Assembly (NCBI GenBank): GCA_010093995.1
Contig: ML992501.1
Location: 1,133,337 to 1,153,336 of the forward strand
Length of the DNA stretch: 20,000 bases
Reading direction: 5' to 3'
From: Elsinoe ampelina
Lineage: Eukaryota
Part shown: positions 1 to 20,000 of the stretch, piece after piece
Layout: each line of letters begins with the position of its first letter
How positions within the stretch are numbered: the stretch's first letter is position 1
Position numbers and translations under genes: made by a program
The notes under the pieces: model-generated
What the model saw: only the letters and a program-made list of their open reading frames with translations
Told to the model about the DNA's origin: nothing
The model's database searches: none

Positions 1-590
1 AGGGTTGGCGATCCAGTTGATACGGGCATCGCGGCGGATAGCCTTGTGCTGGGGGTCAACGAGGATGACCTCGAAGTACTTGTAGGTGGAGTCCTGGTTG
101 ATCCAGTAGGAGTTGAGGACACGCAAGTTGGCGCAGCGACGACCGACGCGCTCCTCGGCGGTGGAACGGAGAGATCGCTGGGACTTGAGCTGGTTCACAC
201 CCTGGTTGGTAGGCTTGCCTTGACGGGTTGTCAGAACACATGTTCACCAGATGTAACCCTTCTCTCTTACCATAAGTGGCACCCTTGGGGGCCATTCGCT
301 TGCGACCTCCACGGCGGACTCGGACACGGTAGATGACGAAACCCTGCTTGGCCTTGTATCCAAGACGGCGGGCCTTGTCGGGGCGGGACGGGCGAGAGGC
401 GCGGTGGATGACATTGAGTTGACGGAGCTAATGATGTACTCTCAGCAAATGTTCAACGAGTAGCATCATTGACATCAAAGATGTCGCTCGGGGTGTCTCA
501 TACCTCCCAGCAGCGGACACGGAGAAGGAAGCGCAGCACATCAGACTGCTTCTTCTTCTGGAGCTCCTCGACGTACTTCAGGGCACCCAT
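1..590 (-). CDS. RPL15: 60S ribosomal protein L15 (eL15), 3' end runs off the window. Coding exons 590-504, 427-271, 218-<1
   Basis: Spliced translation [93 protein letters not shown]...[35 protein letters not shown] is typical eL15. Introns are 503-428 (GTATGA..TAG) and 270-219 (GTAAGA..CTGAC..AAG). Confidence 0.98.
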
Positions 591-650
591 CTGGACAATT
601 GTTAGCCTGTGTCTACAGAATTGGGATCTTTATCATTTCGCTAGACTGAC
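591..650 (-). other. 5'-UTR intron of RPL15 ending immediately before the ATG
   Basis: On the minus strand: donor GTCAGT at 650, branch site GCTAAC at 606-601, acceptor CAG at 593-591 directly abutting the ATG at 590. Length 60 nt. Confidence 0.8.
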
Positions 651-800
651 TTCGAATGACTTAGGGTGGTTGTCGGTATTGTTGAATTTGTCGCTGGTGT
701 CGCGAGTGCAGAAGTGAATTTCGCAGCTTGGGAATTTTGCGATGGTGTGGGTTCGTGGTGATCCGTGCGCAATTCTTCTTGGCAAGAATTATTACTATGG

Positions 801-808
801 TCACGTGA
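801..808. promoter_or_regulatory. Palindromic E-box TCACGTGA (Cbf1-type bHLH site) in the RPL15 promoter
   Basis: Perfect TCACGTGA lies ~150 bp upstream of the RPL15 5'-UTR intron. Cbf1 sites are known in ribosomal-protein promoters of several ascomycetes. Function here is not shown. Confidence 0.5.
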
Positions 809-889
809 TAGACCAGGATCCCCAAAAATTGCGCGAATGATCCTCGTTCCAATATTTATTTCGCATAGTTGTTGTGCTATGGATTCTGT

Positions 890-2467
890 CTATCTTAAAA
901 ACCGCTCAAAGCGTCCCTCGTGTGGTGGCGTCTGCATCAATGCACTGGCACGACCAGGATTATCTCTCCTGCCTGCCCATCGTCTACGTTCCTCATCCAT
1001 TTGTGGGCTTAATTCCTCCTGCACGTTCTCCTGTTGTCGCATCTGAGTCCTCGGCCCTCCGAGATTGTGCCCTGACACAGATTCGAAGGTCGGACTTCTC
1101 CGGTCATCAGCCAATGTTGGTGCAGTGACAGGTGCCGTGACCGTCGGGTACCGCGACTCACCAGGGGGGATCATAGCGGGGTGAAGGTCGCGCGAAATGG
1201 CATTCCTTCGCCTCGCCACAGCATATCTCGACCCTGGGAGACCGGTTTGTCTGGTTCGAAGCTCGGCAGGGGTCTGTGGTTGGAATGCGGCGGGCAAGCC
1301 GTCATCATAGACAGGGAGCCGTGGTGTCCTAGATGCTCGGACAGCTGCTCGCAAAGGAGTCCTCCTTGGTGTCTGTATTTGGCTCACATCTTGAACTCGG
1401 ACAGTTGGAGATTCCCGCCAATTGGACTCGACACCATGTTGGAATGGGTGAGGAGAAGGGGAGTGGGTGGATCGTCTTATTCCAGCACGTGGTGATACAG
1501 CGTCCTGTAACTCAGAATGCATCGGATAGCTGGTCATCCTGCTTGTTGCCCGTCGACGCTCAACGTTTCGAGGCCGATCTCTGTCAGAATGTGTTTGTCG
1601 TGCTTCCCCAGGAAGTATCCATGGATCCGCTCTCAATGACATTACATGATCAACCTGGTCAGTCCTATCTGAATAGAAAGTGTGGCCATGCAATAGTGGT
1701 GTCGATACCACGAGCTCAGATTGGACGAATGGTGATCGCTCGACTTGCTCAAGTCTCGAGTCAGCCATGCGGAGCTTTGTCATGAGTTCGTCAAGAGGAG
1801 ATGAGTCCAGCGGGGATAGCTTCTGGTCTTCCGACGAGCCGGAGATCAGACCGGATGCTGGAGCGTGACCTTGGATTGGCGATGGTGCGTGTATGCTCGG
1901 AGCCCGCACTCTTCCGGCTCCTCGAATGATGCAAGACTTTGATCGAACACTCGCCAGGCCGGAAGGATCGTTCTCTTTCTTGGCTTGTAATAGTGGCATT
2001 GATTGACTTGCAAGGAAGGGGGAATGATGTTCAGTATGAAGCTGCACTGGCATACTCCTGCCCACGTGGATTGCTTGCTCTCGTGAAGTGTTTGACAGAT
2101 AGTTTGATAGTGCCGAAGTATGCTGTGGAAGATTGGAGTAGTCGTCGGATCGATTCTCGTCCTCGTCCTCATAGGAATGATGCTGGATCGAGTGACCGTG
2201 GATAGCGTGCGAGGCATTTGGATGAGACTTGACCGATGGAGTAACAATTGCGTCTGTGACGCGTCGGCTCGGACCAGATCTGACAATCACCTGGCTGGGA
2301 GGAGGAGCCGAGTGTTTTGAGTTCCTTGTTGGTGGTAGACCAGTCGGCCTCCTTGGGATCAGATAGCGGTCATTGCGAGTCTGGAGGCTGGATCGCGTGC
2401 GGCGCAAGTTGTACTCTTCCATGTCCTCCTGACTTATAATGACCAATGACGGTCGACCGCGCAACAT
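890..2467 (-). CDS. Hypothetical S/P/R-rich, probably disordered protein (525 aa from the first ATG) with a Cdc26-like N-terminal peptide
   Basis: 1.6 kb uninterrupted ORF. The first in-frame ATG is at 2467 (the track start at 2587 is TTG). N-terminus MLRGRPSLVIISQEDMEEY. Motif-like islands VYDDGLPAAFQPQTP and QQENVQEE near the C-terminus. Confidence 0.75.
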   Translation of the reverse strand: MLRGRPSLVIISQEDMEEYNLRRTRSSLQTRNDRYLIPRRPTGLPPTRNSKHSAPPPSQVIVRSGPSRRVTDAIVTPSVKSHPNASHAIHGHSIQHHSYEDEDENRSDDYSNLPQHTSALSNYLSNTSREQAIHVGRSMPVQLHTEHHSPFLASQSMPLLQAKKENDPSGLASVRSKSCIIRGAGRVRAPSIHAPSPIQGHAPASGLISGSSEDQKLSPLDSSPLDELMTKLRMADSRLEQVERSPFVQSELVVSTPLLHGHTFYSDRTDQVDHVMSLRADPWILPGEARQTHSDRDRPRNVERRRATSRMTSYPMHSELQDAVSPRAGIRRSTHSPSPHPFQHGVESNWRESPTVRVQDVSQIQTPRRTPLRAAVRASRTPRLPVYDDGLPAAFQPQTPAELRTRQTGLPGSRYAVARRRNAISRDLHPAMIPPGESRYPTVTAPVTAPTLADDRRSPTFESVSGHNLGGPRTQMRQQENVQEELSPQMDEERRRWAGRRDNPGRASALMQTPPHEGRFERFLR

Positions 2468-3262
2468 CTCCGATGAGCACGATGCATGCCAGCGCCTCGG
2501 GTGATGTATGCGGCATTGTGATGACCACGACGGACTGCGGAATACACAGAAGAAATAAGGAAGGAATGTCTGGAGCGTACTTTCCAAGATCCTCTCGCGA
2601 TCTTACGGTGGTAGACGACAATGGAACTCGAGCTGCAGTCCGACTCTGCCATCGGCGCATTCAGACATGTTCATGGTATTCCTCACCCTAATAGACCAGT
2701 GGATCATTCTAATGCTTTCGGTATGGTGCAGGCTCGCTACACATTTCCGCTCTGGCACGTCAGATCGGGCTGGCAGTATCCAGGAGGTAATTTGGCAAAA
2801 TATCGCGTTGGTATCTGGCCCTCGATGAAATTTCTGGTCGAGAATTCATTAGATTGTAAAGATTGGCTGGAACTTCTTGGTGATGATGCGCGGCCCAAGA
2901 TGTGTCGTTGGCCCGTGCATGACTCGGGGACGACATCCAAGGATCCTCGATTCTACGCTTGAAGCCCCAAGTCTGCGAGATAATTCTCTTTGGAAACCCG
3001 TGTTTCTTGGATTCCTCACTCACGTCAACTGATTTTGCATTGACCCTAAGCGCATAGCTGTGGTATTCCAGACGCCGCTCACACCACCAATATACTGTCA
3101 CTTACGACGAACAGCCGGACCGAGCTACTGCCGAGCCATTTCAAGCACACGAGGCCCCCAGGTCAGACAGCATATCACAATCCTACCCTTCCCCAACGCA
3201 ATCTGCATGCAACGACATAGGTGCATGTGCGTTCAAGCTGACAGACTGTCGTCCGTGGCATC

Positions 3263-5832
3263 ATGAATGGCGACCTGAGCCTTTCAGGTTCGCTTGGTGG
3301 CCTACGCATCGCGAACCCCGACGACGATGGACCTACCTCGACCGACTCTCCTTTGAGCCCAAGCACGATAGAGAAACCAATCGACAGTGATGCTTCATCC
3401 ATCAGCCAGCACTCGACCAGCACAATACGAGACTTGCGCCAGGAGTCAACCACCAGCTCGGACTCGACGACATTGACCAGCCTCGAGGGGGGCAGTGCAC
3501 CGCAGGTCTATGATCAAGATGTTGGAAGGCAACAACATTCGTCTGCGGGCTTCTATCAATCAAATCAACACGCCCCCTCCGAATATGAGAATCTCCGGCG
3601 AATGGTTCCTGGCAACGATGCTCGACAAAGACCAGTATCTGCAGTCTACAACCACCCCAATACATCTACAAGCTCGAACGTTTCCGCGCGAGATGGCAAT
3701 CGATATGTTGGAGATCTAATGGCACAACAGCAAATTGGCATTTCGAGAAGTACTTCGCGGAGCGCGTCGCATCCCATGGGTCAAAACTATCCCTCGAGAC
3801 AACCCAGCCAAAGAGACAGATACCGACAAAGTCAACAATACCCCAATGCGCAATACGCGACATCCAATGGGGTCATCCCGCCAAGGAAAGCATCACAACG
3901 AGCACCAATGCAGCATTCCAATCCCAGTCAAGTGAATCAACTTTCGGGAGCTCCATATGCTATCGAGGGAGGACCAATTTCGAGTAGTGAAGACTGGAAA
4001 GAACGAGGAGCGGCGGTTTCGACACGTCGGGAGATCGATGCGAATGGAAATCCGGTGGAAAGGGTGGTGAAGAAAGGTGTCAACGATTTCGAGTTTGGCG
4101 AGGTTCTGGGAGAGGGTTCATACAGTACGGTTTTCAAGGCGCAAGACAGGCAAACGGGGAGGGACTATGCTATCAAGGTGTTGGATAAGAGGCATATTAT
4201 CAAAGAGAAAAAGGTAAAGTACGTGAACATTGAGAAAGATACCCTGAATCGCTTGACCGAACACCCTGGAATTGTCCGCCTGTACTATACTTTCCAGGAC
4301 GAACGATCGCTGTATTTTGTTCTGGACATTGCCGCTGGAGGGGAGCTTCTTGGAGTACTTAAAAGGACTGGAACTTTCGACGTGGACTGTACTCGGTTCT
4401 ATGCTGCTCAGATTCTGGATTCCATCGCCTACATGCACTCGAAGGGGGTGATACATCGCGATTTGAAGCCGGAGAATGTCCTTCTGGACAGCAATATGCA
4501 CACTAAGATTACAGACTTTGGGACAGCCAAGATACTCAGTGTCAAGACCGACAGTGGAGCAAGGGACGGTGCTGGTCATCCTCTGGATGGGGCGGATAGT
4601 GATCGGGCAAAGTCATTTGTCGGTACAGCAGAGTATGTGAGCCCAGAACTGCTGACAGACAAGAATGCTTGTAAGGCGAGCGACCTCTGGGCATTTGGCT
4701 GCATAGTGTTCCAGCTTCTGTCTGGTCGACCACCTTTTAAAGCCGGCAACGAGTACCAGACCTTCCAGAAGATTGTCGCGCTCGACTATCAGTTTCCAGA
4801 TGGGTTTCCTTCAGTCGCAAAAGACCTGATTCAAAGACTACTCGTCCTCGATCCCGCACGGCGATTACCGATTGATCACATCAAAACTCATGCCTTCTTC
4901 GACGGGATACAGTGGGGTAGGGGCTTGTGGCGTATGAGAGCTCCAAACCTCAAGCCGTACGTCCCGCCTCCGAAAGAACCGATCCGATTGAACGGTACGA
5001 GCACAAATGTCCCGGCCACATCTTCACGTTCGCAGGGTACAAGTCCGGCACACACAGGTGCAGCGCACATCCGACCACAGCTCCGGGCAGTGACCGAGCT
5101 TCCGCCACCGTCTCAACTCGACATTGACTGGTCACCCGTACTCACGCGACCCAATGAGAGGATCCTGAAGATGGGCAACTTGATAGTCACATCGTTGCCA
5201 TTACCTCAAAGTCCCCAGCAAGGTAGTTCTGCGGACACTCCAAAGAAATTTTCACGCTTCTTCGGAGGGGGCACCACCAAGAAGAAGCAACGGCTGGTCA
5301 TGATCACATCCACTGCTCGCATCATCGTGGTCGCGGCCGGTGGGGAAGAGAAGAAGGCAAAGATGCTACTGTCTCTCACAGAGCCCGGCGTAGTCTGTCG
5401 GGACTATGTGGATGTGCGCGGACTGACGGCATTCTGCGTCGAGACCGTAAGTTTCATATCCTTCTACTACGTACGAGCAGGCTGACAGCACCACAGAGAG
5501 ACAAACAATTTACCTTCGAAGACCCTCGAGGCAGCACCTCCGACCCCGACGGCTCCAAATACTCAACCAAAGAATGGATGGAAAAGATTGACTGGGCGAA
5601 AGAGCTCGCCGCTTCCCAATCCGTCGCCAACTCCTTCTCTGCCGATACTGATTACAGCGAGCTGGGCTCCTCAGCCCCCAGCCCCAACAGCGCCATGGGC
5701 TCCGACCTACATCTCGACCAGTCCGCCCACCGCAGCGTCCTCCGCCGCGACGGCGACAACGAAAGCCTCCGCAGCCGGAAGAACCGCTTCTCGAAACGGC
5801 ACTCCAAGAGCGGACTCGCGGCCGTGTTTTAG
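3263..5832 (+). CDS. PKH1: PDK1-family AGC Ser/Thr kinase (Pkh1/Pkh2/Ksg1 ortholog), 839 aa. Exons 3263-5446, 5497-5832
   Basis: Motifs GEGSYSTV, YAIKVLDKRHIIKEKKVKYVNIEK, HRDLKPEN, DFGTAK and activation loop RAKSFVGTAEYVSPE, plus a C-terminal PH-like region (KKKQRLVMIT...). Intron 5447-5496 (GTAAGT..GCTGAC..CAG) joins in frame to the 5578-5832 ORF. Confidence 0.96.
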
Positions 5833-6514
5833 GAACCACATCGCCGGACACGAATCCGCAAGACGAATTCATCCATTGCATCGTCACTCTCGTGACGCTC
5901 TCGCTCTTTTGAAACTTCACGACTCCCACCATTGGCTTAATACTCCTCGCCGACATGACTCACGACACGACTTGGCTTTCAGGCCGACTACTCTCGGCCG
6001 ACGACTTGCGCTCCATGAGAGCGAGACTGTACTCTACCTCGCATCTACCGTGCTTTTTTTTTTCTTTGTTGCAGGCTATGCCACATATATAATCACCTCA
6101 ATAAGCGCATGGTGTTTTTGGCGCTTTTGGAAGAAGGAAAGGCATTTGCTATCATCGCCCCGACTATAGGGGCCACCACAACCTGACGGTCTTTAATTGT
6201 GTAATTCGAAGCGGGGGAATGTAAAAGGGGAGTTGACCATAGTCAGGGGCCAGGATACGGTTGCTGGACGGATGTGACCGGTTGGCTTGCATGAAGGAAA
6301 GGACCAGGGGAAGGTTGAATATACGTAGATGGAGCATGAAGGGACAAGACACCTTGATCTGCCTCTCGTAAAGACGTGTTTGACAGTGTTGATTGAGTTT
6401 TACATTTCGATTTTGGTCCTCCCAAACCGCCTGCATTTTTCCAGCGACTTGTGCAGTCTGGGTATACCTGCCTTCCTGATGATACGCCGGCCACTTTACC
6501 TGCCACTCGCCTGG

Positions 6515-8153
6515 TTACTCCATCTTGTTTTCGTCCTTTGGCTTCTCGTCCTTCTTCTCCTTCTTCTCCTTCGCCGCGCTCTCACCATACCTCTTCCGCT
6601 TCTCACTCCAATACCGCCATCCCCTACTCACTCCCGCCGTCGCCAAGCCCTTGATGCTCTGACTCGTGCTCGGCCACGCTATCGTATTCCGCACGCACGT
6701 CTCCACTTTCTGAGCAATGTCCGACTCCATGGCGATTCTGCGCTCAAAGTCGCCTGCTTCCCGCTTGCCGATGAAGCTCTGCGCGTCTTCGTCTTTGCTT
6801 TCGTCGATGATCTTGTCGAATGCGCTTCCCGGGATGGCGAACTTCTTGCGGTATTGGTAGTAGAGCTTTTGCCGGAAGAGACGGGGAAGACGGCGGACCA
6901 TGTTCCCGCGACGTTGTGCGGACATGTCTTGTTGCATTTTGAAGCCGTCTGGGCCGCCGATGATCTCGGCGGGGTTGCGCGTGTCGGCGCTGCGGGCCAT
7001 GACGTCTTCGCGCTCCCAGCCTGCCTCGAGAGGGATGCGAGAGTCGTTGAAGGCGACGTTGGGGAGGGTGTCGATCAGGGGAACGTAGAGCTGGCGGAAG
7101 TTGGGGAGCTGGTTGCGGACGATGTTGCGGACTTTGCTGGTGTTTTCGCTACCGAAGGACATGCGAGGATCGCCGAGATAGGAGATGGATGTGATGGTCT
7201 CGTAGAGCTGGCGCTCGGTGAACTCTTCCGGAAGCATGAGCAGAGCTGTCCGTACCGCGGACATGAGGTTGATTTGGTTCGCGAGGCGGACCCGGGGATC
7301 GTCGCGGAGGATCTTGACAGGCTTCTGCAGGCGACCGGCAATGTACAGCGTGTCCCATTCGGAGAGGTCGCGACAGATTGTGTCGAGATTAACAACACCA
7401 TACTTAATCATAGTCCCGTTGACTGTGATGTAAGGGTTGAAGTAGACGCCAGCGCCCCAGCTGTCTTGGATCTTCGACACGGTGTAAGAACCTAGATACT
7501 TCAATGCAGAGTAGTGCTCGGGGTATTGTTGAAGGTTGATCGACTGCCAGTGATGGGTATATGAAACACCAAATATGAAGTCGATAATCTTAGCACCGTT
7601 CTCCTGCCATTTCTTGATCGCTTCGGGAGGATGCGGGTGTGGTGACAGCGCATCTGGGCTGGCCGGTTTGTTGGATTGGGAAAAGACACCGCTGCCATAT
7701 GCAAAGGCATAACGGATTGGCGCCTTGAACTCCCATAGTATCTGCCTCAGAGCCTCCTTGAAATCCTCATTGACTCGGATGTGTTGATTTGTACCAAAGT
7801 ACTTGTGCGGCAGTTCGGAGAAGGTCTTGATGCTCAAATCTGGATTGTCCTCCCATCCCTCTGGCATTGACTGATTGGAGATGTCGCTCGAAGTAGGAGA
7901 AGGTGTCGGCTCTGTCTTGACCGGCTTCTCGAAGGATGGGGTGAAATGTTTGGTGTCATCCTTCTTCTCGGTAGCATATGTCTGCGTTTGCAAGCGGAAG
8001 CATTGTGGCCGGTGCTGCCATGTAAGCTGACCAAGGATGAAGCTGTGGCCAGCTACGAGAGGCTTGAAGCCGCGGGTCGTCTATTCACAAGTCAATGCCA
8101 GCCATGTAGCGGCTTGTGGAAGAAGAATGTACCGAAAGTCTTCGCAAAGACAT
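6515..8153 (-). CDS. TAM41: Mitochondrial phosphatidate cytidylyltransferase Tam41/Mmp37, 528 aa. Exons 8153-8133, 8080-6515
   Basis: Motifs APIRYAFAYGSGVF, IDFIFGV, GAGVYFNPY, IKYGVV, WDTLYIAGRLQKPV, ISYLGDPRM, KVRNIV. A 52-nt intron at 8132-8081 (GTACAT..TTGAC..TAG) supplies an ATG and an Arg-rich, acid-free presequence, MSLRRLS|TTRGFKPLVAGHSF... Confidence 0.95.
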
Positions 8154-8486
8154 CCCACTTTCGCCGGGAGATGTTTTGGCCCACGCAGCGGGATTGAAAA
8201 TGATGAGCTGCGTTCAAGCAACAGACCCATCGTCGGAAGCGACCATATATCTCATATCAGGAACATAGGGACTAAAGAGTGACAAGAATTGACGATCCAA
8301 AGATGCAGCGGAGGGCACCTTCAAGGTCTCGATGGTCGTAGAAAGTCGGCAATCGGAGACGTCACAAATCGCCGAGGTTTGTCCGAGCGCGAGAGATTGG
8401 CGTGTTTTGTTTGTGCTTGTCGCGTTTCCACTCCGCAAAGCTCGACATCACTTCGTTATTCAACCACATTGGACACCACAGCAGCC

Positions 8487-10854
8487 ATGGCTGATCCCAC
8501 GACAGACATGCGCATGTACGAGAACAGACTTGCGACGTTCTCCGAGCATGATCATCCAGCAAAGAAGATTCAGACGTCGCAAGGAAGGGGTGTCGCAAAG
8601 AGCTGGCCTCACGAAACTCCAACAGCGAAAGATGTTTGTTTATTGTAGCTGCATGCTAGACTACTAGCTGACGTCGCGCAGCTAGCTTTTGCTGGTTTCT
8701 ATTTCGCTCCGACATCTAACAGTGAGGACAACGTCAAATGCTTTCACTGTGAAGTCAAGCTGGACGGCTGGGAGATCGACGACAGCCCCCTCAAGGAGCA
8801 CATAGCACACTCGGCAGAATGTGCATGGGCTATTACTACGTCGGTCGCACTTGACAACGAAGATCGTGACCCAATGTCAGAGAAGCTGCTTACCGCAAGA
8901 CTCGAGACTTTCGGTAGCTCGTGGCCGTACGAGAAGAAGCGAGGATGGAAGCCTAAGTCGAAGAAACTGGCTGAAGCAGGATGGAGCATGGATCCTTCAT
9001 TACGTGCAGAGGACGGAACTACATGTTTCTATTGCCAAATCTCGCTCGACGGATGGGAGGCGAAGGATGATCCAATGTAAGTCCCGCGACGCGCAAAAGT
9101 GTCTAGACGTTGACGTTCGCAGTGAGGAGCACCGAAAGCGACAGGATAATTGTCTCTTCTTCGATCTTCTCGACCGCTATGCATCCACCCGACCCAAGAA
9201 AGGTCGCTCTAGAAATTCGACTGCCTCAAAAGCATCCCGCCTGTCCACCCAATCCATTCAATCTACCTTCTCGGAAGCGCCATCATTTATGTCCCTCGGG
9301 GACGCCGCGCCAAGTCTGGAGCTTGAGAGCAGCATTGGGACAATCACGAGCATGACGTCCACAGCCAAAGGCAAGAAGAAAGCCCCAAGTGCGAAAAAGG
9401 GTGGTCGAACAAAGAAGAAGGCGGCAGATGAGTCTGACATGACAGGGATGGAAACGGCCATGACCACCCTGGAAGAGACACTGGCGCCGTCACAGAGTCT
9501 ATTACAAGGAACACAGGAAGACACGCAAGCCGAGGTGAAGAAGGAACCAGCAAAGAAGGCGACTCGTGGAAAGGGCAAAGGTAAGAAAGCCGCAGACAAG
9601 GTCGCAGATGAGACGGAGGATCAGAGTCAATTGCAGTCGGAGCTGATGGCAGCGGCGACAGAACCAGAGCCGAAGAAGCCGACCACAAGAGGAAAGCGTG
9701 GCAAGAAGCGGACCAGCGATGGGGAGGAGAAGCCCCAAGAAACACAAGAGGCGGTCACAGAGCCGCCAACAGAACAGGTGATGGAACCAGTCCAGGAAGT
9801 ACCGGTCAAAGCGAAGAAGGGCAAGCCAACACGGGGTAAGAAGGCAAAAGCTGCTCAAGAGGAACAAATTACAGAGGCACCGCCGACCAAAGAAGTACAG
9901 CCTATGGACATTGACGAGCAAGTGCTCGAAGTCAAGGAAGAGGCAGCGAAGCCGAAACGTGGAGGAAGGAAGCCCAAAGCCACCAAGCAGGCAAAGCAAG
10001 CGACACCGGAGCCAGAACCACATGTCGAACCTGAACCCGAGCCGGAGATACAGGTCGACGACCCTATGGAAGATGAGTCTGGAAATTATGTCGTCCATCC
10101 TGCGGAAGAAGAGTCCGAGTCCAACTACGTGGTCCATGCTGGAGAAGAAGAGTCAGACGCGAACTACGTGGTCCACGACGAGTCTTCTGCGAACTTTGTC
10201 GTTCACGATCAAACACCAGAACCAGCCGAGTTCGAGCCAACACCGACACCACAGAAAGCCCCTGCAGCAAGGAAGCCGTCTCCTGAACAGCCAACATCAA
10301 CGCACTCTTCGCCACACAGCGTCCGCAGCCAGCAGTCCTCAGACGCGGAGAACCATCCGCCTTCGTCCAGTGCTCGCACGTCAAAGCGTGTATCCGGAGC
10401 CATCAATGCCAAAGCACTGCCTCCTGCGCCTTCCCCGCCACCCCATGCCGCCGCACCAGTCTCGATCCATGCACCTCTGCTATCACCAGTCAAGACGTCT
10501 CGCGTCCCTCTTGCAGCACAAACGCCAAACCGCTCACCATCGAAGCACTCGCCCACCAAGCTTGGCTATCTGAAAGCTCGGACCCCATGGTCGGCCATCG
10601 ATATCGAGACCATCTTCCCTGCGGATGGGCAAGAGAACGAGGGCACCGGCGTGGCTAAGAAGCTCGCCGAGCTTGGAGGCCAGCTGACAAGTCCGGAGAA
10701 GAAGATGACAGTGGAGGAGTGGATCCGCTTCCAAGCGGCAAAGGGAGAAGAGAGACTCAAGGACGAGTGCGAACGACTCGTCTGGTTGTTCGAGCAAGAA
10801 GGGACAAGAGCTATGGGTGTCTTGGAAGGAGTTGAGATTAGGGGAGAGACCTAG
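8487..10854 (+). CDS. BIR1: Chromosomal passenger/IAP protein Bir1 (survivin-like), 757 aa. Exons 8487-8633, 8682-9076, 9123-10854
   Basis: Two BIR domains: RLATF...WPH...LAFAGFYF..DNVKCFHCEVKLDGWEIDDSPLKEHIAHSAEC and RLETF..WPY..LAEAGW..CFYCQISLDGWEAKDDP|IEEHRKRQDNC. These are followed by a long K/E/P-rich linker and the conserved C-terminus LTSPEKKMTVEEWI...CERLV..FE.EG.RA. Introns 8634-8681 and 9077-9122 have canonical signals and restore the frame. Confidence 0.95.
10075..10209 (+). repeat. Four degenerate tandem coding repeats (30-39 nt), ES-x(1-2)-N[YF]VVH, within BIR1
   Basis: Peptide ESGNYVVHPAEE/ESESNYVVHAGEE/ESDANYVVHD/ESSANFVVHD. The DNA core aactacgtggtcca is present twice exactly. 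Confidence 0.9.
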
Positions 10855-10999
10855 GAGGAGACTTTCCTGGCATGATGACCCGGGATGAATGATGGACTGA
10901 AAGGTTATGGGCGGATGGAACATTGTTCGACATTGGATACTGCCTGACAAACATCCTGTACCCAGCTCAGGAGAAGCGTACACAGCGCTGCGAATGCAT

Positions 11000-12479
11000 T
11001 CATCTCCCATTCCCAACCCCACACCCACTCCACCCCACAAACCCTTCCTGAGGTTTCACCCCCCTCACCGCCCTCCCACTCCCCTGATCCCCCAACACCA
11101 GCCCCGTCCCCTCTTCAAACGTCCCCCACCCCTCCCCCCTCAACCCCTCCGGATCCCTCGCAAACTCCACCCACAAATCCTGCATCCTCCCACTCGTCTC
11201 CAGCTCAAACCTAGTCGACTTCCCCAGATTCTCCATCGTGCCGAACAACAACGGCAGCTCCGAGCTATGATACGCCCCCTGCCCTTGCGGGGAGACATTC
11301 GTGAAATTTCCCCAGTACTGATACGTGTACGTCGTGCGTCTCGTGGGGGCTTGGTCGCGGAGGGTGAGGGCTTTGACGAGGGGACACAGGAAGGAGTCGT
11401 TGCTTTCGTCTTTGTTGGAGCCGTAGATGGCGGGGACTTTTGCGAAGGCGTCGGCGGCGATCAGGGAGGGGTAGTCGGAGAAGAAGGTGCGGTTGTCGGG
11501 AAAGGGGCCGAAGGGGAGGCCGGCTGCGGCGGTGAGGAGGGTGGGGGCGGGGAGGGCGCGGAGGCAGGAGAGTTGGGAGGTGGGAGGGCCGGTGCAGTTG
11601 AGGGATGTGGCGAGGTTGGCGAAGACGGAGACGTTGCCGATGGAGAAGGGGAGGAAGACGGTCCCGCTGTCGAGGATGAAGGCGGACGCGATGGGGGTGG
11701 TGGGGTAGGCGAAGTTGTAGTAGTCGATCGAGGAGGCGCCGGCGGATTGGCCCCAGAGGGTGATGCGGGTGGGGTCGCCGCCGAAGGAGGCGATGTTGGC
11801 GGAGATCCATTCGATGGCTTTGCGTTGGTCGAGGAGGCCGGGGTTCTGGCGGTCGAGGCCGGCGGCGCCGGGGAAGCCGAAGATGCCGAGCCGGTATTGG
11901 ATGCTGATGACGATGTGGGATTGGCTGCGTTGGACGAAGTTGGTGGGGTTTTGGAAGGGGACGGATGTGCCACCTTCGATGAGTGCGCCACCGTGAATGA
12001 AGACCAGGACGGGGAGATTGCGGGACTTGCGGGAGGTTGGTGTCCAGATGCTGAGGGTCAAGCAGTCCTCACTGACGGGAGTACTGATGAGATATTGGAA
12101 GCCTGTCTGGGTGGAGTACAGGCCAGGTGTAGTTGATCTGATCTGCATGCAAGCTTTTGGCAAGGTGGTAGCATCAATGTCACGCTTGGTGTTGACCAGA
12201 TCGGCGGGTGGCTGCCATCGTAGGAGGCCAACAGGAGGCTCTGCGTATGGGATGCCCAGAAATTGTCGGACATCAGGGGCGGTCTCATTGATGGTTCCGC
12301 GGACTGCTTCATCAGCATCTATTGATTAGAGAATCAATGCTACCAGGCTTACCTGTCCCGGATGTCGTCTTGACTGTCAAGCCTCTTCGGCCGTAGTCAT
12401 GATCATCAGTAGGGGCCGTTGAAAGGACTAATAGTGGGGATGATAGCAGCACAGTAAGAAAGGAAATCTTGGACCACAT
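11000..12479 (-). CDS. Secreted type-B carboxylesterase/lipase (alpha/beta hydrolase), 476 aa. Exons 12479-12353, 12303-11000
   Basis: Signal-like N-terminus MWSKISFLTVLLSSPLLVLS. Motifs VKTTSGT|VRG, FLGIPYAEPPVGLLRW, SEDCLTLSIW, oxyanion HGGA, YRLGIFGF, NIASFGGDPTRITLWGQSAG (Ser), GSNKDE (Glu), GAYHSSEL (His). Intron 12352-12304 (GTAAGC..GCTGAT..CAG). Confidence 0.93.
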
Positions 12480-13024
12480 GTTTGCGGGCTGTAGTACACC
12501 TCGAATCGATAAAAGAGACTCGAGATCAAGAAAAGGCTTGTCCTACCTTGACTTTTAAGGAAAAGCTTGACTTTGCCCTATCCTGGAGAGAGAAAATGCC
12601 ACAACTTATACTTTGACGTCGACGTCAGGAAGGAGGGGTTACAGAAGAGACCATGCAATATTGGACACGGAAGAAGTCAAAGTGGAACATCGATCATCAA
12701 AAGCCGGGACGGGAGGTTGAAATACGGTCGGTTCCTTTTCGGGCTCGGCCGGAGACGCGGATGCTTAGTCATTATGGACAAAGAGAGTCCGCATCTCGGT
12801 CACACTCTGAGAACGCCTCTTCATCAACCACGCATCAACAAACAGTTACAACCTTGACTCAGCGGGGTGAATTAATCGAAACGCACCGCGAAGAGCAATC
12901 CCAGTCTGCCGATTGAGAACGATCCTGTGCGATACAGAAGCATCGGCGAACACGCGCCTCCACACACAAAGCTACACCACATGGCGGGATCAGTCTCGTC
13001 TCACTACCGCTGTCTTTCACTGTT

Positions 13025-14071
13025 ATGGCTCTCGAGCTCTTGGATCTGCCATCTGAAATCTTAGCTTTGGTATTCCGACATCTCCGAGCATATGGTCTTC
13101 ATAGTACTCTAGCTGTTTCCAAACAGTGGAAAGCAGTGGCCGAACCTGTGGCCTACGAATATGCACGACTTCCTCTGATGAGGAGAGATGTCTCCAACGA
13201 GCCTTGGAATCTGCCGACCCGCACTTTGGGATTGATTCGCAAGTACAACCAACATCTGGCTGTACTGCTGCCCTCGTACACCATTCGAGATGAAGTCCAT
13301 CCTGGTGAACAGCTTGCAAAACACCCGATGCAACAGAGAGTCCAGTGGCTAGATCAAGAATTGCTTAGCCGGCTGACCCGCCCCAAATCTGTGAGCATTC
13401 GGCGCGGATCTCCTCTCCCTGGCGGCGAATTGAAATGGATTGGTTTGTCGACAGCCGGCAACGATCAATATCTCCGAGTGTCGCTCCATGACATCCTACC
13501 AGTGATAAACACTCTCACCGCCATGTCCACCCTTACCTTCGTGGGTATCGATTTGCGACCAAAAGACCTGGATCAATCCAGCGTGGCAGCTGATGGGCAT
13601 GACTGCTTGTGTAAGGATCTTGGAGCGTTGATGAGACGGACAATGACGTTTTACCTGCGCTTGCCGTGTATCTGTCCGAAAATCTTCCAAGCACCTCCCC
13701 ACCAGCCGGAATCTATGTCAGGTTCGACAGAAGCAGTCATTAATATCAGCATGGGTTTCGATGACGATCTTGAAATCGAGCACGCTACAGGATGTCCACA
13801 GACTATGGGTGGTAACAAGAGCGTCAATCCTGCATCGATGCAAGAGGCAGCCCGAGCCGTGGTGGAGAAGACGCCTTCTATCAAGACCTTGCGGATTGTC
13901 TATCACACCTATCCGATGGGCGATGCGGAAGCGTATGATGCAGTCTCAAAGCAACGTTACAGAGTGTCCGAGCAGTCATGGACCGAGCATGGATCATTGC
14001 TGGACATCAATGACGCTTCAGACTCGGATCTTTTTGACGATGTCGATATCTTCAGCGATTCGACGCAGTAG
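13025..14071 (+). CDS. F-box domain protein (348 aa) with a degenerate LRR-like C-terminal part
   Basis: N-terminal LLDLPSEILALVFRHL...LAVSKQWKAVAEPVAY fits the F-box consensus. Intronless ATG-to-stop ORF with a Cys motif CLC..LGALM...LRLPCICP and an acidic tail. Confidence 0.8.
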   Translation: MALELLDLPSEILALVFRHLRAYGLHSTLAVSKQWKAVAEPVAYEYARLPLMRRDVSNEPWNLPTRTLGLIRKYNQHLAVLLPSYTIRDEVHPGEQLAKHPMQQRVQWLDQELLSRLTRPKSVSIRRGSPLPGGELKWIGLSTAGNDQYLRVSLHDILPVINTLTAMSTLTFVGIDLRPKDLDQSSVAADGHDCLCKDLGALMRRTMTFYLRLPCICPKIFQAPPHQPESMSGSTEAVINISMGFDDDLEIEHATGCPQTMGGNKSVNPASMQEAARAVVEKTPSIKTLRIVYHTYPMGDAEAYDAVSKQRYRVSEQSWTEHGSLLDINDASDSDLFDDVDIFSDSTQ

Positions 14072-14450
14072 AGTAAATCTTGGCCCCTGTTTGAGGACTG
14101 GCTGCAAAATATCTTTCATGCCTTTCATCAAACTTCTTGGTCATTCCTTTGAAACGTAGCCGCGGCGTAGACATAACCCTACCTGAACGCCCGATGATAC
14201 TTGGCATTGATTTCTGCCAAGTCTGTGATCGCTGCGCTCAAATTCAAGCCCCCACAAACTACGACTTGAATCTCTCCTCCTGCAGCCATCTTATCGCCAC
14301 GCAGAAATTCCAAGCATACGGATCTCCGGTATCGCAAACGAAGGGCGTTTGCCTTGCGCACCTCTGGTGTTTGCGAATCCGGATATAATAAATTCAGCCC
14401 TACTATCCATCACGGTACTCAACTCATCCGGGTCGTTCCGCAAGCGTATA

Positions 14451-15088
14451 CAGTAGATTCTCTGTACAACGTTAGTTCCTATAGCGTTATCTTGGCTATA
14501 ACGTTGGAGTTGCTTTTCACTGTTTGTTTTGTGTGCCAATTTAGCTCTTCTCTTGCTATACCGTTACGTTAATCTATTAGCCCTTTTATTGTTATATAGA
14601 TTACTAATTTTAGTGTAGTTACTACTTCTAGCATGCCTCTAAGGAACGCTATTACTGCTAGCTAAAAGGCCTTAATCCGTTAGCGTTATAAAGAGTTTCC
14701 TTACTATAGTTAACAATACTTTACTAAGTACTTTACTAAGCTATAGAGTTATAATATCTATTAATTAATAGTCTCTAATATTCTCTACTAAGTTAGCTTT
14801 AAGCTAGGTAATAAGGCAAGGCTAGACTCTAAGTAGCGCTACCTTAAGCACTATTTAGATCTTAAAGCTACACTCTTCTAGTAGTAGTTAAAGGTAGAGA
14901 AGTTAATACTAGTAACTAGCGCAATTTTAAAAGAGTAAGCTAAGAGGTTATAGAAGATAATACCTTAGTATACTAGCTTAGAAATACTAAAGTTCTTAAC
15001 TAGCTAGTTAACTAGCTTTAAGAATAAGTATAGTATAAAGTAGTAAGTCTATTATAGTAAGGCTAGTAATATTAATAAGGAGGCTAAT
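14451..15088 (+). mobile_element. Left part of a pogo/Tc5-like (CENP-B type) DNA transposon, RIP-inactivated and truncated by nested insertion
   Basis: TA (14449-50) is followed by TIR-like CAGTAGATTCTCTGTACAACGTT. Subterminal repeats TACAACGTT/TATAGCGTT/TATAACGTT/TATACCGTT lie at 14462-14565, followed by a transposase relic. Confidence 0.85.
14633..15088 (+). pseudogene. RIPed pogo/Tc5 transposase N-terminus (two HTH DNA-binding domains)
   Basis: One continuous frame from ATG 14633. De-RIPed it reads M..RNAITASQKALIRQRH...I.QSTVSDIL...YPDLEAALFQWQ...VTGAILKEQAKRLW..IPQY....PKFSTGWLTGFKNKHGIKQQVRHGEAG. No DDD domain is visible before the interruption. Confidence 0.85.
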
Positions 15089-15170
15089 TATAATAAAGGT
15101 AGAATATTAGAGCTAGAAAGACAAGTATATAGGAGTAGAATAGGTATTATACTAGTATACCCTCGATTAT

Positions 15171-15286
15171 TGTAAGACTAATCTCTACTCTATCTATTCT
15201 ATAGGCGAGGAGTGTTTTATCCTTCTATAGAGAATAGTATCTCTAGAGTAAGCTAGCGTAGTATACTTACTATATTAGTTCTTATA
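15171..15286 (-). repeat. Putative 3' LTR (116 bp)
   Basis: Termini TGTAAGA (15171) and TCTTATA (15280-86; RIPed TCTTACA) form a 7-bp inverted repeat with TG..CA ends, adjacent to the PPT. The second LTR is outside the window. Confidence 0.6.
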
Positions 15287-15289
15287 ATT

Positions 15290-15302
15290 ATTCTCCCTCT
15301 TT
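15290..15302 (-). other. Polypurine tract (PPT)
   Basis: Minus strand reads AAAGAGGGAGAAT, ending 3 nt before the putative LTR start. Confidence 0.65.
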
Positions 15303-15942
15303 AATAGGCGTACCCTTGTACCTATAAGCCTTAATAAAACCTAGAAAACCTAGTATAGGAGAAAACTAGAAAAGAGTATCTTACTAGCGCCTCTTAGGCG
15401 TAGTATACTCTTCGCATATATAGCACACCTATAGTAGCCTATACTATTCTTTATATACCAGATATAGTAACAATAGTATAATTCTTTATATATAGAATAT
15501 AGCGCTCTTATATTATTATCTTTATATATAAGAATTTATCTATTATTATATACTACTACCTATTATTTTTCGGATTAGTCTTAGCTTAGAGCTAGATATA
15601 TATTCTTCTCTTTTTCTTCTCTTTTTCTTTTCTCCTTTATAATACTTCCTTTATATAAGTATTCTCTTAATACTAGCTCTATACTTACGTAGGTCTAACA
15701 CTATACTAGTAATCTATTTTAGGTGCTATATAGTATAGACTAGGTCTTACTAGCCTAAGAGCTAGTAGAGGAGGCTTAGTATATATACTAAGCCTACGCT
15801 ACTATAGATCTAGCTATCGGGCTTATCTATTTAGTTATTTATTTACTAACCTAGCGTAGCACCTACGTAGTAATTTTTTTTCTCTTTATTATTCTAGCTC
15901 TATACTAGCTTACCTTCTATATACTTATATACTTTAATAACT

Positions 15943-16813
15943 ATAGCCCCTAAAGTTCCTAAGGAGTAAGTATTATATATAGCACTTACGCTATGCTAGT
16001 GCTAACCTTTTATAGACCTTATAAGAGCAATTTTACTAACTAGAACTAGTACTCTATACTATACTTACGCTACGCTATTACTATTAATAAGCACCTCTAG
16101 CTTAAAGATAGTATACTCTCTATTAAGGATCCTCTCTACTAGATTACTAAGGCTAAGGCTACCTACTATAATTGTTATAGTTATAGTAATAAATACTACT
16201 ACTAGGTATACTCTACACCTATGCCATACCTACTTTATACTAACCTTAGTAGCCTACTAAGCTTAACTCTAAGAATTAAGTTACTACTAAGAAGCTCTAG
16301 GACAAATACTTTACTATATATATACTACTCTATAATAACGCTACTACTTCTAAGAAGGATATTATTCTTCTAAAGCGCTAGATTACTCCCTATACTAACT
16401 ATATACACGAGAAAGCTAGCGCTAAGCATATATAGAGTAAGTCTAATGCTAAGAGTAAGAGTAAGGTAGTTAATAAGAGTAATAGTAATAGTATAACTTC
16501 TTTATACTATAATAGCGCTATTACTATACCTTTCGCCTCTAAAGTCGACACTAAGTAGCTAGTAAAGGCGCTATACCTAGGTATAATTAGTAATACTAGC
16601 TTTATACTTAAGGCTTTAGTTAATTATATAAGTCTAGAAGTACGCCTCTATAACGCCTAAGCTATACTAACTTTCTTATAGGTAGTTACTAAGAATAAGT
16701 AAGCCGCTACTACGTAGGCGATTAATAACGCTATAAGGGCGCTAACTAGGCATATTAATAGTATTAAGAAGAATAATAAGAATAAGACTAAGGTAAATAA
16801 TATAGATAGTTAA
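15943..16813 (+). pseudogene. RIPed spliced extra gene inside the retrotransposon, antisense to pol (~258 aa). Exons 15943-15965, 16016-16205, 16250-16813
   Basis: Intron 1 is GTAAGT..GCTAAC..TAG (15966-16015) and intron 2 is GTATAC..TACTAAC..TAG (16206-16249). The spliced frame has only RIP-type TAG/TAA stops and de-RIPs to a coherent protein with a Cys cluster and an acidic tail. Confidence 0.7.
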
Positions 16814-16970
16814 GATAGAGGGGGCTAGAGCGCTATACCTATACTATACTCTCTTTGCTTTAGTATAATTCTATAGTTTTTACTACGCTAGTGTTCTTTC
16901 TACGTAAGCTAATAATACTCTAAGCTAACCTAGCGCTACGCCTAGGTGCTTTTTACTTTAAAATTTATAC

Positions 16971-19900
16971 CTAACTTGTTAATCCTAAGTGTATCTAGAG
17001 TGTTTAGCTAGCGCTATACTTATACTAAGCTACCTTATATTTATATAGTAATTCCTTAGCGTTTATAAGGTTTTTTGCTAGCTTTTATATACTTTCTTCT
17101 ATAGAGTAACCCTACTACTTTACTAGGTAGTATAGCGCCTTTAGGGTGCTAGTATAGCTCTTACTAAAGATACATTTAATAATATATTCTTCCTACTCTT
17201 CTATCTCTAGGGGCGGTAGGCGTATACTCTTACTACGCCTATATAGCTCTAGTAGCGCAACATTAAAGACGTTATAGATTAGCTTTATTTTGTCTAGTAA
17301 GCGTAGCTTATATACCTATATACTAATTCGTTATATAATTATAAATAGGCTAATATACTTAGCTAATAGCTTATAGCTAGGTCTAGTACTACGAAGGTTC
17401 TTAGTACTAAGTATAACCTTATTACTATTATAGAAGACTTTTGCTTATTAATCTCTATTATAGGCTAGCGCTTAGTCTTTCTATGCTTTATATAGGTGTT
17501 AGGTAAGCTCTATACGCGTTTCGGTAATAGATTATACTTAGTTATTAACTAATAAGTTATATACTAGCATATAGCTAGGTAGCGCTAGCGTCTTAATATT
17601 ATTAGGTAGGCGTATCTCCTACATAAATAAGAACTATACTAGCGTAGTGTATAGTAATGCTTAATACGTGTTATTATATACGAATTGCGCCTACTTAACC
17701 TAGTATAGCTAGTCCGTCTAGTAATAGTTAATAAAGTAGTATAGGTACTACTCTAGCGTCTAGTTTTGCCTTTTAGTTTAGTTGTCTATCTATAGATAGA
17801 AACTAGTACTAAGCTTACGTTACGCCTTCTAGTACTAGTATAGCGCACTCTAGAATTTACTTATAAAGATAGACTCTCTATCTAAGACTAGCGTCTTTAG
17901 CGTTCTAAATAATATTATAATATCTATTTTAAATAGATTAGTAAAGTCTCTAGCGTTAAGCTTAGTTAACGTTAGTATATAGATACTAAACTTAGATAAG
18001 TAATAGATATATACGATAATCGCGTCTATAACGACGCTAGGCTAGAGCTCTACTAGGGGTAAGCTAGTAATAAAATTAAGTAACTAGTGTTATAAGGCCT
18101 TAAGTATAAGCGGGATTAGCAAGGGTTATAGGAGGCTATAAGGCTTATACTACGTTACCTTATGCCTTTAGTAGCTGTTATAGCGCTTAATATATACCTT
18201 TATAGCGATAGATATACCTAGCTACTAGTACTTTCTCCTTATATTAAGGTAGGTCTTTATATAGCTAAAGTAACTCTCTAAGGAGTTATTATAATTACGC
18301 TATATAAGCTCTACTCTTAAGGTAGTTTCTTCTAGGATATATACCTTATCTCCGTTCCGGAGTAAGCTATTACTAGATAGGCTCTACTTAGGAGTAGTAC
18401 TATTACTAGTTAAGGTTCTCTCTTTTAGAAGTTTCTATTTCTTGCTATAAGTAAAGGCGTCCCTTTACTATGCTATATAGATAAGGTCCCGGAGTAACAT
18501 AGGAGTAAAAGAGATATACGTAGTCTTATCTACTAGTACTTACGTAGTATAGAGGCATATAATCTACTAACTCTAGTTTAAAATTATAGTAGGCTTTCTA
18601 CTAGAGGTGTCCTAGAGTTATATAGGCGTTATATTATCTTTATGCTCTTAGCTCTCTATTATTTCCTAGGCGAGTAGCAGTACATCCTAGAATACTAAAG
18701 TAGGTATATATCGTTCTAATTTAATATTGCTAGTTAGGCTTAGAGGAAGATTTATATAAGTGCTCTCTAGGCGCTACTCTTCTTTCTCTAGAGGCTCTAA
18801 CTCTTCTTAGTATAGCTATAGCACTCCTAAGGTAATAGGTGGACTTATAGGCGCTATTCTAGAGGCATGTTAGAATTATATAAGCGCGTTACGTTAGAGA
18901 GTAGTTTAAGGCATATAAGCTATACTAGCTTTATTACTATCTTCCTAGACCCTACTAGCCTTAGGTTTCTTATCTATAATAGATACAAGTATAACTCCTT
19001 TACTTCGCGTTTATAATGCTTACTCTAAGAGAGGGACTAATATATAGTACTCTTTCTATATATCTTCTTTATACTTATAGTAGTTAGGCCTACGTAATAG
19101 GCTATTAGCTAAGTTAGTCTTTCTACTATAGTGCTAGATAATAATATTAAACTACGCTAGTACCTCGGCGTAGTAGGCCTAGCGCTATAAAAGCTTCTTA
19201 GTAGTTAAAAAATACCTAAGGTTATTATAGTTAAAGAGAACTTTAATCGGGGTAGTAGTACTAAGTAGGTACTAGCGCTAGTACTACGCCGCTTCTATAA
19301 TAGTAAGAAGCTCTTTATTATAGGTAGTATAGTTTAGTTCTACACCTTATAGCTTTTAGAACTAGAACGCTATAGAGTGCTAGTGTCGCGTAGAAGTGTT
19401 ATTTTTATTTTACTAGGAGATTACTCTAGAGAGTATAAAATCTAAAGCGTTAGTCTCGAGCTAGAGAGACTTACCTAATAAAAAGTAGCGTAGTATAGAC
19501 ACTTATATAAAGGCGGCTTTAAGCCTATTAAAGGCCTATACTATGTCGTTACTCTATAGAAATAGGCCTACTTACTTCCCTTAGACTAACTCTTACGTAA
19601 GTATAGTTAGTAGTAGTACTACGCGAGAGAAGCTCTTAATAAATTAATAGTAGAAATTAGTAAATCTAAGAAAGGTTTATAACTCCTTAAGGCTAGTAGA
19701 GGTAGGCTAGTTAGTAATAGCTTATACCTAAGGCTACTCTATTATAATACTATTACTACTAATAATATAGCTTAGAAATACTACCTATATTACCTTAAAG
19801 ATATACTTCTTTAGTTTTATATAAAGGCTATTCTTACGTAGGTAGTCTAGTACGCTCCTAATAGCCTAGTAATACTCTTACTCGTCGCTAGCGTAGATTA

Positions 19901-20000
19901 GAATATCGTCTAGGTATATAATATAGTAGTAGTCTACTAAGCTACTTAAGTACTAATATATATAAGTCTAGAATATAGCTAGGGCATTAGTAAGGCTAAA
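16971..20000 (-). pseudogene. pol: RIPed pol (RT, RNase H, integrase, chromodomain)
   Basis: RT: FGLTNAPATFQ (de-RIP) and intact YLDD at 19916-19905. RNase H: ETDAS (19457-19443), KELLAIV, DHNNL, NPADGLSRRPDY (~19120-19080). Integrase: H-x6-H..CDSC zinc finger (~18300-18160), DFITGLP, SDR..IFTS, HPQTD.QTERQNQTLEQYLR, GPF (17351-17343). Chromodomain: EEYIV...YLVKWQGY...STWEP..NL (~17192-17035). Confidence 0.95.

Follow-up and report, generated by a model that had tools for sequence, protein, structure and literature searches.

In a RIP-mutated retrotransposon of the fungus Elsinoe ampelina, pol and the 3' LTR lie far apart; is the DNA that separates them spacer, a captured passenger or a gene of the element itself? 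We ask this of one locus, in a window (the whole stretch of DNA analysed) of 20,000 nt from contig ML992501.1 of assembly GCA_010093995.1 (positions 1,133,337 to 1,153,336 of the forward strand), and all coordinates below count from its first letter. An earlier note, drawn up from the letters alone, had proposed a RIP-mutated, intron-containing cargo gene on the strand opposite to pol, with a cysteine pattern reminiscent of zinc-cluster proteins.

Positions 1-14300 of the window are gene-rich DNA (GC 51-57%) that encodes a protein kinase, Tam41, a carboxylesterase and an F-box protein; the Tam41 protein has 92% identity to its Elsinoe fawcettii counterpart. Strong mutation by RIP marks the DNA from about 14400 to 20000, with a GC content of 30-35%, a TpA/ApT ratio of 1.6-2.6 and a (CpA+TpG)/(ApC+GpT) ratio of 0.07-0.20. 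RIP in this window is of the CpA type only, as CA is depleted (rho 0.15) and CT (1.93), CG (0.94) and CC (0.91) are not.

The mutated DNA holds the pol of a Ty3/Gypsy chromovirus on the minus strand (17010-20000), truncated by the window end and riddled with RIP stops. It can be divided into RT, RNase H, integrase (zinc finger and core), an SH3-like domain and the chromodomain region, and RT, RNase H and integrase follow one another along the minus strand in the order required for a Ty3/Gypsy chromovirus. Pfam matches are RT_RNaseH (8.6e-13), RT_RNaseH_2 (4.3e-12), SH3_Tf2-1 (5.5e-9), RVT_1 (1.6e-5) and Integrase_H2C2 (E 0.048). At E<=1 Pfam finds no chromodomain on the RIP-mutated pol reading; the best pol relatives are chromoviruses (E=3.4e-93), most of them with PF00385, and tblastn alignments to relatives reach residue 988-991 of 997.

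The element ends in a 3' LTR remnant (15087-15303, minus strand), the edges of which were placed largely by depth, a rough measure obtained by aligning contigs of the same organism's DNA run at 80% likeness and summing them. The outer edge is where the match to other copies stops: a unique contig stops at 15077, loose ends 'before' 15086 are seen in seven contigs, and within the bin 14937-15203 depth rises from ~300 to 26.4k. For the inner edge the sole marker is a 12-nt purine run (15291-15303, minus strand), a candidate polypurine tract, and this edge is therefore putative. Depth at 15305-15568 (1.5-6k) is below that of the internal region, which speaks against an LTR reaching deeper into the element, and a longer LTR reaching up to a 36-nt purine tract at 15603-15640 was ruled out on the same ground. 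From the candidate polypurine tract to the proposed gene runs a non-coding spacer (15304-15942), presumably a promoter region, in which the tract at 15603-15640 appears on the plus strand as 36 nt of pyrimidines (CT). An Rfam search of 14300-20000 matched no family.

Between pol and the LTR, the plus strand carries the three-exon frame that the earlier note had described, and we could confirm it from the sequence: 777 nt or 259 codons at 15943-16813. Exon 1 (15943-15965) starts with ATA, which would have been ATG before RIP, and encodes A-P-K-V-P-K. Intron 1 (15966-16015, 50 nt) reads GTAAGT ... GCTAAC ... TAG, is the only strict intron pattern on the plus strand of 15087-20000, and connects an N-terminus in frame 1, like that of a protein family described below, to exon 2 in frame 0; an in-frame ATG that survives at 15993 would offer an alternative start without need for the intron. 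Exon 2 (16016-16205) holds a cluster of Cys-possible codons at 16062-16196 and, with TAY codons read as former TGY, gives C-x2-C-x6-H-x23-C-x2-C-x6-C, in which the TGT at 16173 is the sole Cys codon of the frame to survive. Inspection of the long loop of exon 2 by eye for a missed intron yielded GT..AG spans of just 17-35 nt, which are too short. Intron 2 (16206-16249, 44 nt) reads GTATAC ... TACTAAC ... TAG, and the variant sites listed for other copies include no indel there. Exon 3 (16250-16813) is K/N/I-rich, reads as formerly helical and ends with the stop TAA at 16811-16813. Its tail may once have been partly acidic, but under CpA-only RIP an acidic reading is open to no more than 7 of the final 15 codons, not 12; the activation-domain-like D/E tail of the earlier note was over-read, as in full it would require reversal of RIP at non-canonical sites. 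The frame and pol converge, with the end of pol (minus strand, ~16970-17010) lying 157-197 nt from the antisense stop across a gap at 16814-17009. The gene cannot make protein as it stands, because it contains 15 internal stops (12 TAG and 3 TAA).

In DNA so mutated, a frame of this kind could be the chance product of back-reading RIP in a non-coding 3' region: every stop is reversible, the start codon is itself a reconstruction, and the splice motifs occur at chance frequency (strict motifs, 1 seen against 1.0 expected from simulated sequence; loose motifs, 10 against 8.1). The splice signals are present as the earlier note wrote them, but their number is no better than chance. Its remark that all stops are TAG or TAA is likewise true but uninformative, since 15087-20000 contains 1,096 stops over its six frames, every one of them TAA or TAG, with TGA absent. 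Three-base periodicity does separate a gene from its surroundings (chi-square). It is present in exon 3 (p=1.5e-13) and exon 2 (p=4e-5) in the proposed frame, compared with p=0.79 on the LTR side (15087-15599) and p=0.61 in the gap to pol; at 15690-16016 the value is 0.12. A codon model trained on the RIP-mutated pol, agrees with the periodicity; in cross-validation this model scored the true frame at 2.1-17.0 bits per 150 codons and no other frame above 2.0. In the frame of exon 3 the score reaches +20 bits per 100 codons, compared with 13.6-21.5 for pol, and frame 2 accumulates +29 bits over 16229-16829. Frame 0 is positive over ~15990-16200, and the switch from it to frame 2 at 16200-16230 coincides with intron 2. 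These two antisense frames are the clearest positive runs between pol and the LTR, well above all minus-strand frames, and the remaining frames score -10 to -29. A chance frame thus sits badly with periodicity and codon usage at the level of pol, and we regard it as very improbable. The segment 15943-16813 was NEVERTHELESS a gene, very probably of antisense coding ancestry, as the earlier note had claimed for a gene antisense to pol, and for its transcript we infer two splice events.

All six stop-masked frames of 15087-17000 were without a match in Pfam. Three sequencing runs presumed to be RNA match the host DNA at 12000-14562, where one 49-nt joint (12303/12353) is seen; over the element their yield is only a 41-nt low-complexity piece (16752-16792, 7 mismatches) and no joints at 15965/16016 or 16205/16250, which is uninformative either way.

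The segment belongs to the element and does not look like an insertion of this copy alone, again in line with the earlier note. Summed depth is 10.7-14.7k over 15471-16805, 12.0-18.8k over pol and 154 over unique DNA, which corresponds to roughly 70-95 diverged copies of the extra segment, about as many as of pol. Since its depth is comparable to that of pol, it is not a private insertion, and the antisense segment is present in most copies of the element family. Among the 40 variant sites listed of 407, none falls on a Cys-possible codon. The same depth bears on a further explanation, in which the ancestor of the element family captured part of a host gene or of a different transposon, carried since as a passive passenger with no role for the element: whatever its origin, the segment is not private to one copy. 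The stop-masked reading of exon 3 gave no HMMER match among 1.84 billion representatives, which would suit such a fragment, as would the abundance of Zn2Cys6 factors among the host genes of fungi.

Related elements carry the same arrangement. We retrieved 79 chromovirus loci from metagenomes by alignment of intact pol proteins, of which 45 reach the pol C-terminus with at least 500 nt beyond. Many of these 45 have an antisense ORF converging on pol, with its stop offset by -37 to +519 nt relative to where the pol match ends. Eight ORFs have the spacing C-x2-C-x6/8-C-x8-13-C-x2-C-x6-C in common, and the corresponding Cys regex matches ten times on the antisense strand of the relatives (two of the ten in low complexity) and never on the sense strand. 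A profile built from the family matches in 9 of the 79 loci, in each case on the antisense strand and immediately 3' of pol. These nine directly found ORFs are intronless; a tenth locus (L009) has a 50-nt intron, GTGAGT ... CACTAAC ... TAG, between the third and fourth Cys, and its antisense protein ends in a run of Glu. The proteins are 165-240 aa long, their six Cys are invariant in 52 aligned family sequences, and dN/dS among three loci is 0.07-0.11, that is, they are under purifying selection. Two of the loci, L065 and L048, share a conserved palindrome with CGG-N7-CCG, 29 nt upstream of the antisense start and ~70 nt from the polypurine tract.

The database holds 212 family proteins at E<=1e-3, mostly on contigs of 6-7 kb; a few named ones are from Pleosporales and one is from a basidiomycete, and two members carry the UniRef name 'Zn(2)-C6 fungal-type domain-containing protein'. 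Among the best 120 of the 212, 89 have the Cys motif. Three subfamilies can be told apart, with 46, 25 and 23 members, and the third has an acidic tail. For the captured fragment, it can be added that the spacer between polypurine tract and ORF start is 640 nt here compared with ~100 nt in L065. Against it stands the recurrence of the same arrangement in 10 of 79 distant relatives, where it is kept by purifying selection, and we consider a passive passenger improbable.

What the intact protein is can be predicted with some detail. Pfam Zn_clus (PF00172) matches 35 of 52 members at E<=1, with a best E of 1.7e-4; the protein of one locus, L054, scores 17.5 bits where the curated cut-off is 21, a comparison made for this protein only. 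In a profile search of the PDB, GAL4 comes first (E 0.074), and LEU3 and PUT3 are also found, the three spanning E 0.07-0.5. The AlphaFold2 model of the L054 protein has a mean pLDDT of 80.7, with values above 90 over most of residues 11-130; it comprises one short helix and one of 60 residues, a knot resembling the cluster (residues 31-66) and a tail that is disordered. With this model as the query, Foldseek places Zn2Cys6 DNA-binding domains at all of ranks 1-12 (E 0.3-3.3, none at E<=0.001). The ESM Atlas returned only 'hypothetical protein' clusters of Ascomycota for the L054 protein.

A homodimer model, run with zinc included and with the alignment not used, scores 0.64 (best control 0.01), with contacts that agree 100% between runs and a partner pLDDT of at least 88. 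Among proteins of known structure, 21 of 30 solved as pairs attain the mark applied to such models, and 0 of 23 solved as single chains do. In the prediction the two long helices pair antiparallel, with residue i in contact with about 188-i. Modelling thus supports pairing of two copies of the family protein via the long helix, and the protein of the intact relatives is predicted to be small, Gal4-like Zn2Cys6, with a dimer-forming helix and often an acidic tail.

Does the dead gene of the window belong to this family? Its position, its strand and its gap to pol lie within the range of the relatives, and its size also fits (259 codons here, proteins of 165-240 aa there). Exon 1 reads (M)-A-P-K-V-P-K, and M-P-K-[VIAS] starts 22 of the 25 proteins of subfamily b and is present in 24 of them. 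The earlier note had given this exon-1 reading when it could not know of the subfamily, and it fits the M-P-K-V start. P-K-V occurs only three times in 11,198 six-frame codons of RIP-mutated DNA, and the match to subfamily b also supports intron 1, since it is intron 1 that links that frame to exon 2. In exon 2 the two half motifs have the exact C-x2-C-x6 spacing, a pattern with 2 matches in 11,198 codons (exon 2 of the window and one decoy), albeit one that was widened with the data already in view. Many family members share the C-x-R-C form of the first Cys pair, and the surviving TGT sits at the fifth Cys position. TAY codons make up 12 of 63 in exon 2, compared with 8.5% in pol.

The same exon can be read against the family. 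The third ligand position is a His (CAC), which is not derivable from Cys by RIP, and the middle loop has 23 residues, compared with 8-13 in 97 regex-matching family sequences (regex range 6-14). The zinc-cluster-like pattern of the earlier note stands in part: its spacing is compatible with RIP and the relatives' gene has Zn2Cys6 spacing, but its Cys were chosen among 12 Tyr codons, at each of which Tyr, His and Cys are possible. A real antisense accessory gene of an unrelated kind, with the zinc pattern an illusion created as RIP turned Cys, His and Tyr codons alike into TAY, would account for this, and relatives offer precedents. L004 has an antisense ORF of 196 aa with an acidic tail and clear periodicity (p=1e-6) but no detected cluster, and the antisense ORF of L017 is likewise without one; brtn, considered below, may be another example. 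Of the two closest pol relatives, L001 has no family ORF and L003 a half motif only. Cys-possible patterns are moreover common in RIP-mutated DNA, with the family regex on Cys-possible codons giving 8 decoy matches in the 11,198 codons and a widened regex 16; the unwidened regex finds these eight decoys, yet not the window's gene.

Profile tests against the family also came out negative. For these, a RIP-aware profile of the window with an effective sequence number of 1 was used, which took the pol controls from 109, 91 and 57 to 161, 148 and 82 bits; an unweighted, prior-free version fell below plain phmmer on the pol controls and so was replaced. All of these tests have low power, as the DNA is RIP-saturated. 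With hhalign, the probability of the window profile was below 1% for every family template, and a search of 8267 ORFs with the RIP-aware profile found no family ORF. In hmmsearch with sampled ancestors, the target came first of 53 for the all-family profile only (2.4 versus 1.9 bits), a rank it did not gain with any of the three subfamily profiles. Comparison of six frames with the 79 chromovirus loci by tblastn gave a best E of only 0.13. An unrelated kind of gene would leave the P-K-V start, the exact half motifs, the TAY enrichment and the TGT kept at the fifth position as coincidences, and we hold it to be rather unlikely. Membership of the window's gene in the antisense Zn2Cys6-like family of chromoviruses is, in our judgement, probable.

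We therefore favour the reading that 15943-16813 is an accessory gene of a chromovirus, killed by RIP, which runs antisense to pol in the interval before the 3' LTR and belongs to the zinc-cluster family; we rate this as fairly likely. The core of the earlier note then holds: an antisense gene with introns that serves the element as an accessory, dead in this copy, and probably a member of a Gal4-like zinc-cluster family. Being on the strand opposite to the element, such a gene would need a promoter of its own, and its two small introns would be copied at every retrotransposition, because antisense introns cannot be spliced from the genomic RNA of the element. In intact relatives the product would have a short basic N-terminus, a Gal4-type cluster, a pairing helix of ~60 residues and a disordered, often acidic tail. 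Its function would most likely be that of a dimeric DNA-binding regulator encoded by the element, acting on the LTR-proximal control region or possibly on host promoters; DNA binding and a regulatory role are what we infer. More tentatively still, many fungal chromoviruses might encode their own small, dimeric Gal4-like factor from an antisense, at times intron-bearing gene at the 3' end, which binds a CGG-type palindrome by the LTR and times transcription of the element and perhaps of nearby host genes, with the window holding one RIP-killed member of a family of ~80 copies in a plant pathogen. We see this broader proposal as possible, with the odds somewhat against it.

LTR retrotransposons are usually thought to rely on host transcription factors. 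If real, a conserved factor of the element's own would add a new layer of self-regulation in fungal mobile elements, and hosts could draw new zinc-cluster regulators from it. The family lends itself to direct tests, given that its proteins are small, abundant in public data, mostly annotated as hypothetical and next to a conserved palindrome. For annotation, a long stretch between pol and LTR in RIP-mutated elements of Dothideomycetes can be a dead gene and not junk spacer, and three-base periodicity can recover dead genes even where stops fill every frame.

How does this compare with known systems? The protein of the relatives resembles Gal4, Put3, Leu3, Hap1, Ppr1 and Pho7 in having the six-Cys spacing followed by a dimerising helix, and factors of the Gal4 type are its best sequence and fold matches in the PDB, all of them sub-threshold (PDB E>=0.07, Foldseek E>=0.3). 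Unlike them, it is far smaller, lacks the middle homology region and is encoded by a retrotransposon. Its predicted dimer is antiparallel, whereas the Gal4 coiled coil is parallel.

As an antisense gene of a fungal retrotransposon it has a forerunner in brtn, which was reportedly described by Zhao et al. 2011 (Virology 417:248). As the sections of later papers that deal with it describe, brtn is an antisense gene between pol and the 3' LTR in Boty-like chromoviruses of Botrytis and Sclerotinia (PMC8365987, PMC7264820, PMC4227169, PMC5987419). The view of the earlier note that fungal chromoviruses have gag-pol only was therefore incomplete. For full-length fungal Gypsy elements, a figure legend of Novikova et al. 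2010 notes an 'additional ORF with unknown function', with neither orientation nor sequence given there (PMC2864245), and a 2011 survey of fungal LTR elements leaves antisense ORFs unmentioned in its passages on the subject (PMC3248453). Antisense genes in fungal chromoviruses are already known, with brtn as the case in point, and their identity as zinc-cluster genes was not found in the literature searched: no paper in the search, which covered main texts, ties a zinc cluster to a retrotransposon antisense ORF. Boty and the element of the window are alike, from those same sections (PMC7264820, PMC8365987, PMC4227169), in being fungal chromodomain-bearing Gypsy elements with an extra gene from pol to the 3' LTR, antisense to gag-pol. 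They differ in host, a Leotiomycete there and a Dothideomycete here, and the likeness drawn is one of position and strand; the best 120 of the 212 family matches include no Botrytis proteins.

In plants, the Gypsy elements Grande1, RIRE2, Retand and PvRetro13 have antisense ORFs between pol and the 3' LTR in most copies of each family, according to the passages of PMC7264820 on these elements. Their place and orientation are those seen in the window, but the plant elements belong mostly to non-chromovirus Tat/Retand lineages, and a Zn2Cys6 motif is not mentioned in those passages (PMC7264820). The window's gene shares with brtn and the aORF-3R type its position, its strand and its presence in most copies of the element.

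The gene for the antisense zinc-cluster protein can itself be interrupted by an intron. In L009, one of 79 related chromovirus loci from metagenomes, a gene of this family lies on the minus strand (4622-5694) and carries a canonical fungal intron of 50 nt that interrupts the zinc cluster itself. Because this intron splits the gene, it was not detected by the family profile. The encoded protein has a long, charged N-terminal helix and a poly-Glu tail. Other relatives also carry extra ORFs in the interval that separates pol from the 3' LTR: an antisense ORF of 196 aa in L004 (6155-6745, minus strand), which shows three-base periodicity (p=1e-6) and is acidic close to its end, an ORF in L017 (6063-6461, minus strand), and a sense ORF of 314 aa in L049 (13509-14453, plus strand), with periodicity at p=5e-7 and a weak match to the WCCH motif. 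No zinc cluster was detected in these three ORFs. A second ORF containing M-P-K-V-P, located upstream of the element in L014 (1265-1567, minus strand), may be a further family member from an adjoining element.

Near the antisense start, L065 (5120-5230) and L048 (1830-1940) share a conserved palindrome in which TATAA-like arms flank CGG-N7-CCG, with the antisense start codon 29 nt downstream; the palindrome precedes the polypurine tract and LTR start by approximately 70 nt. This palindrome is a candidate binding site of the zinc-cluster protein. In the window, a pure pyrimidine tract of 36 nt (15603-15640, plus strand) lies approximately 300 nt upstream of the proposed antisense start and could be a CT-box in the antisense promoter. 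It is purine-rich when read on the sense strand of the element, and we ruled it out as the polypurine tract, given that depth places it too far inside the element.

At its outer end, the LTR of the window copy has been either truncated or replaced, given that seven contigs from other element copies run on past 15086 with a common sequence that the window copy lacks. RIP-type mutation sets in at approximately 14350-14400, and the high-copy repeat begins only at 15087, approximately 700 nt further on. The stretch 14270-15086 (plus strand) is near single copy, with a summed contig depth of 154-300 and one second contig across 14904-15082. A Pfam search of this stretch returned no match. It retains the three-base periodicity of the frame of an open ORF at 14270-14572 on the plus strand (p=0.004), and its codon score in that frame, from a model trained on RIP-mutated pol, is +7 to +11. 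The stretch may be a gene remnant struck by RIP leakage, or else an old repeat.
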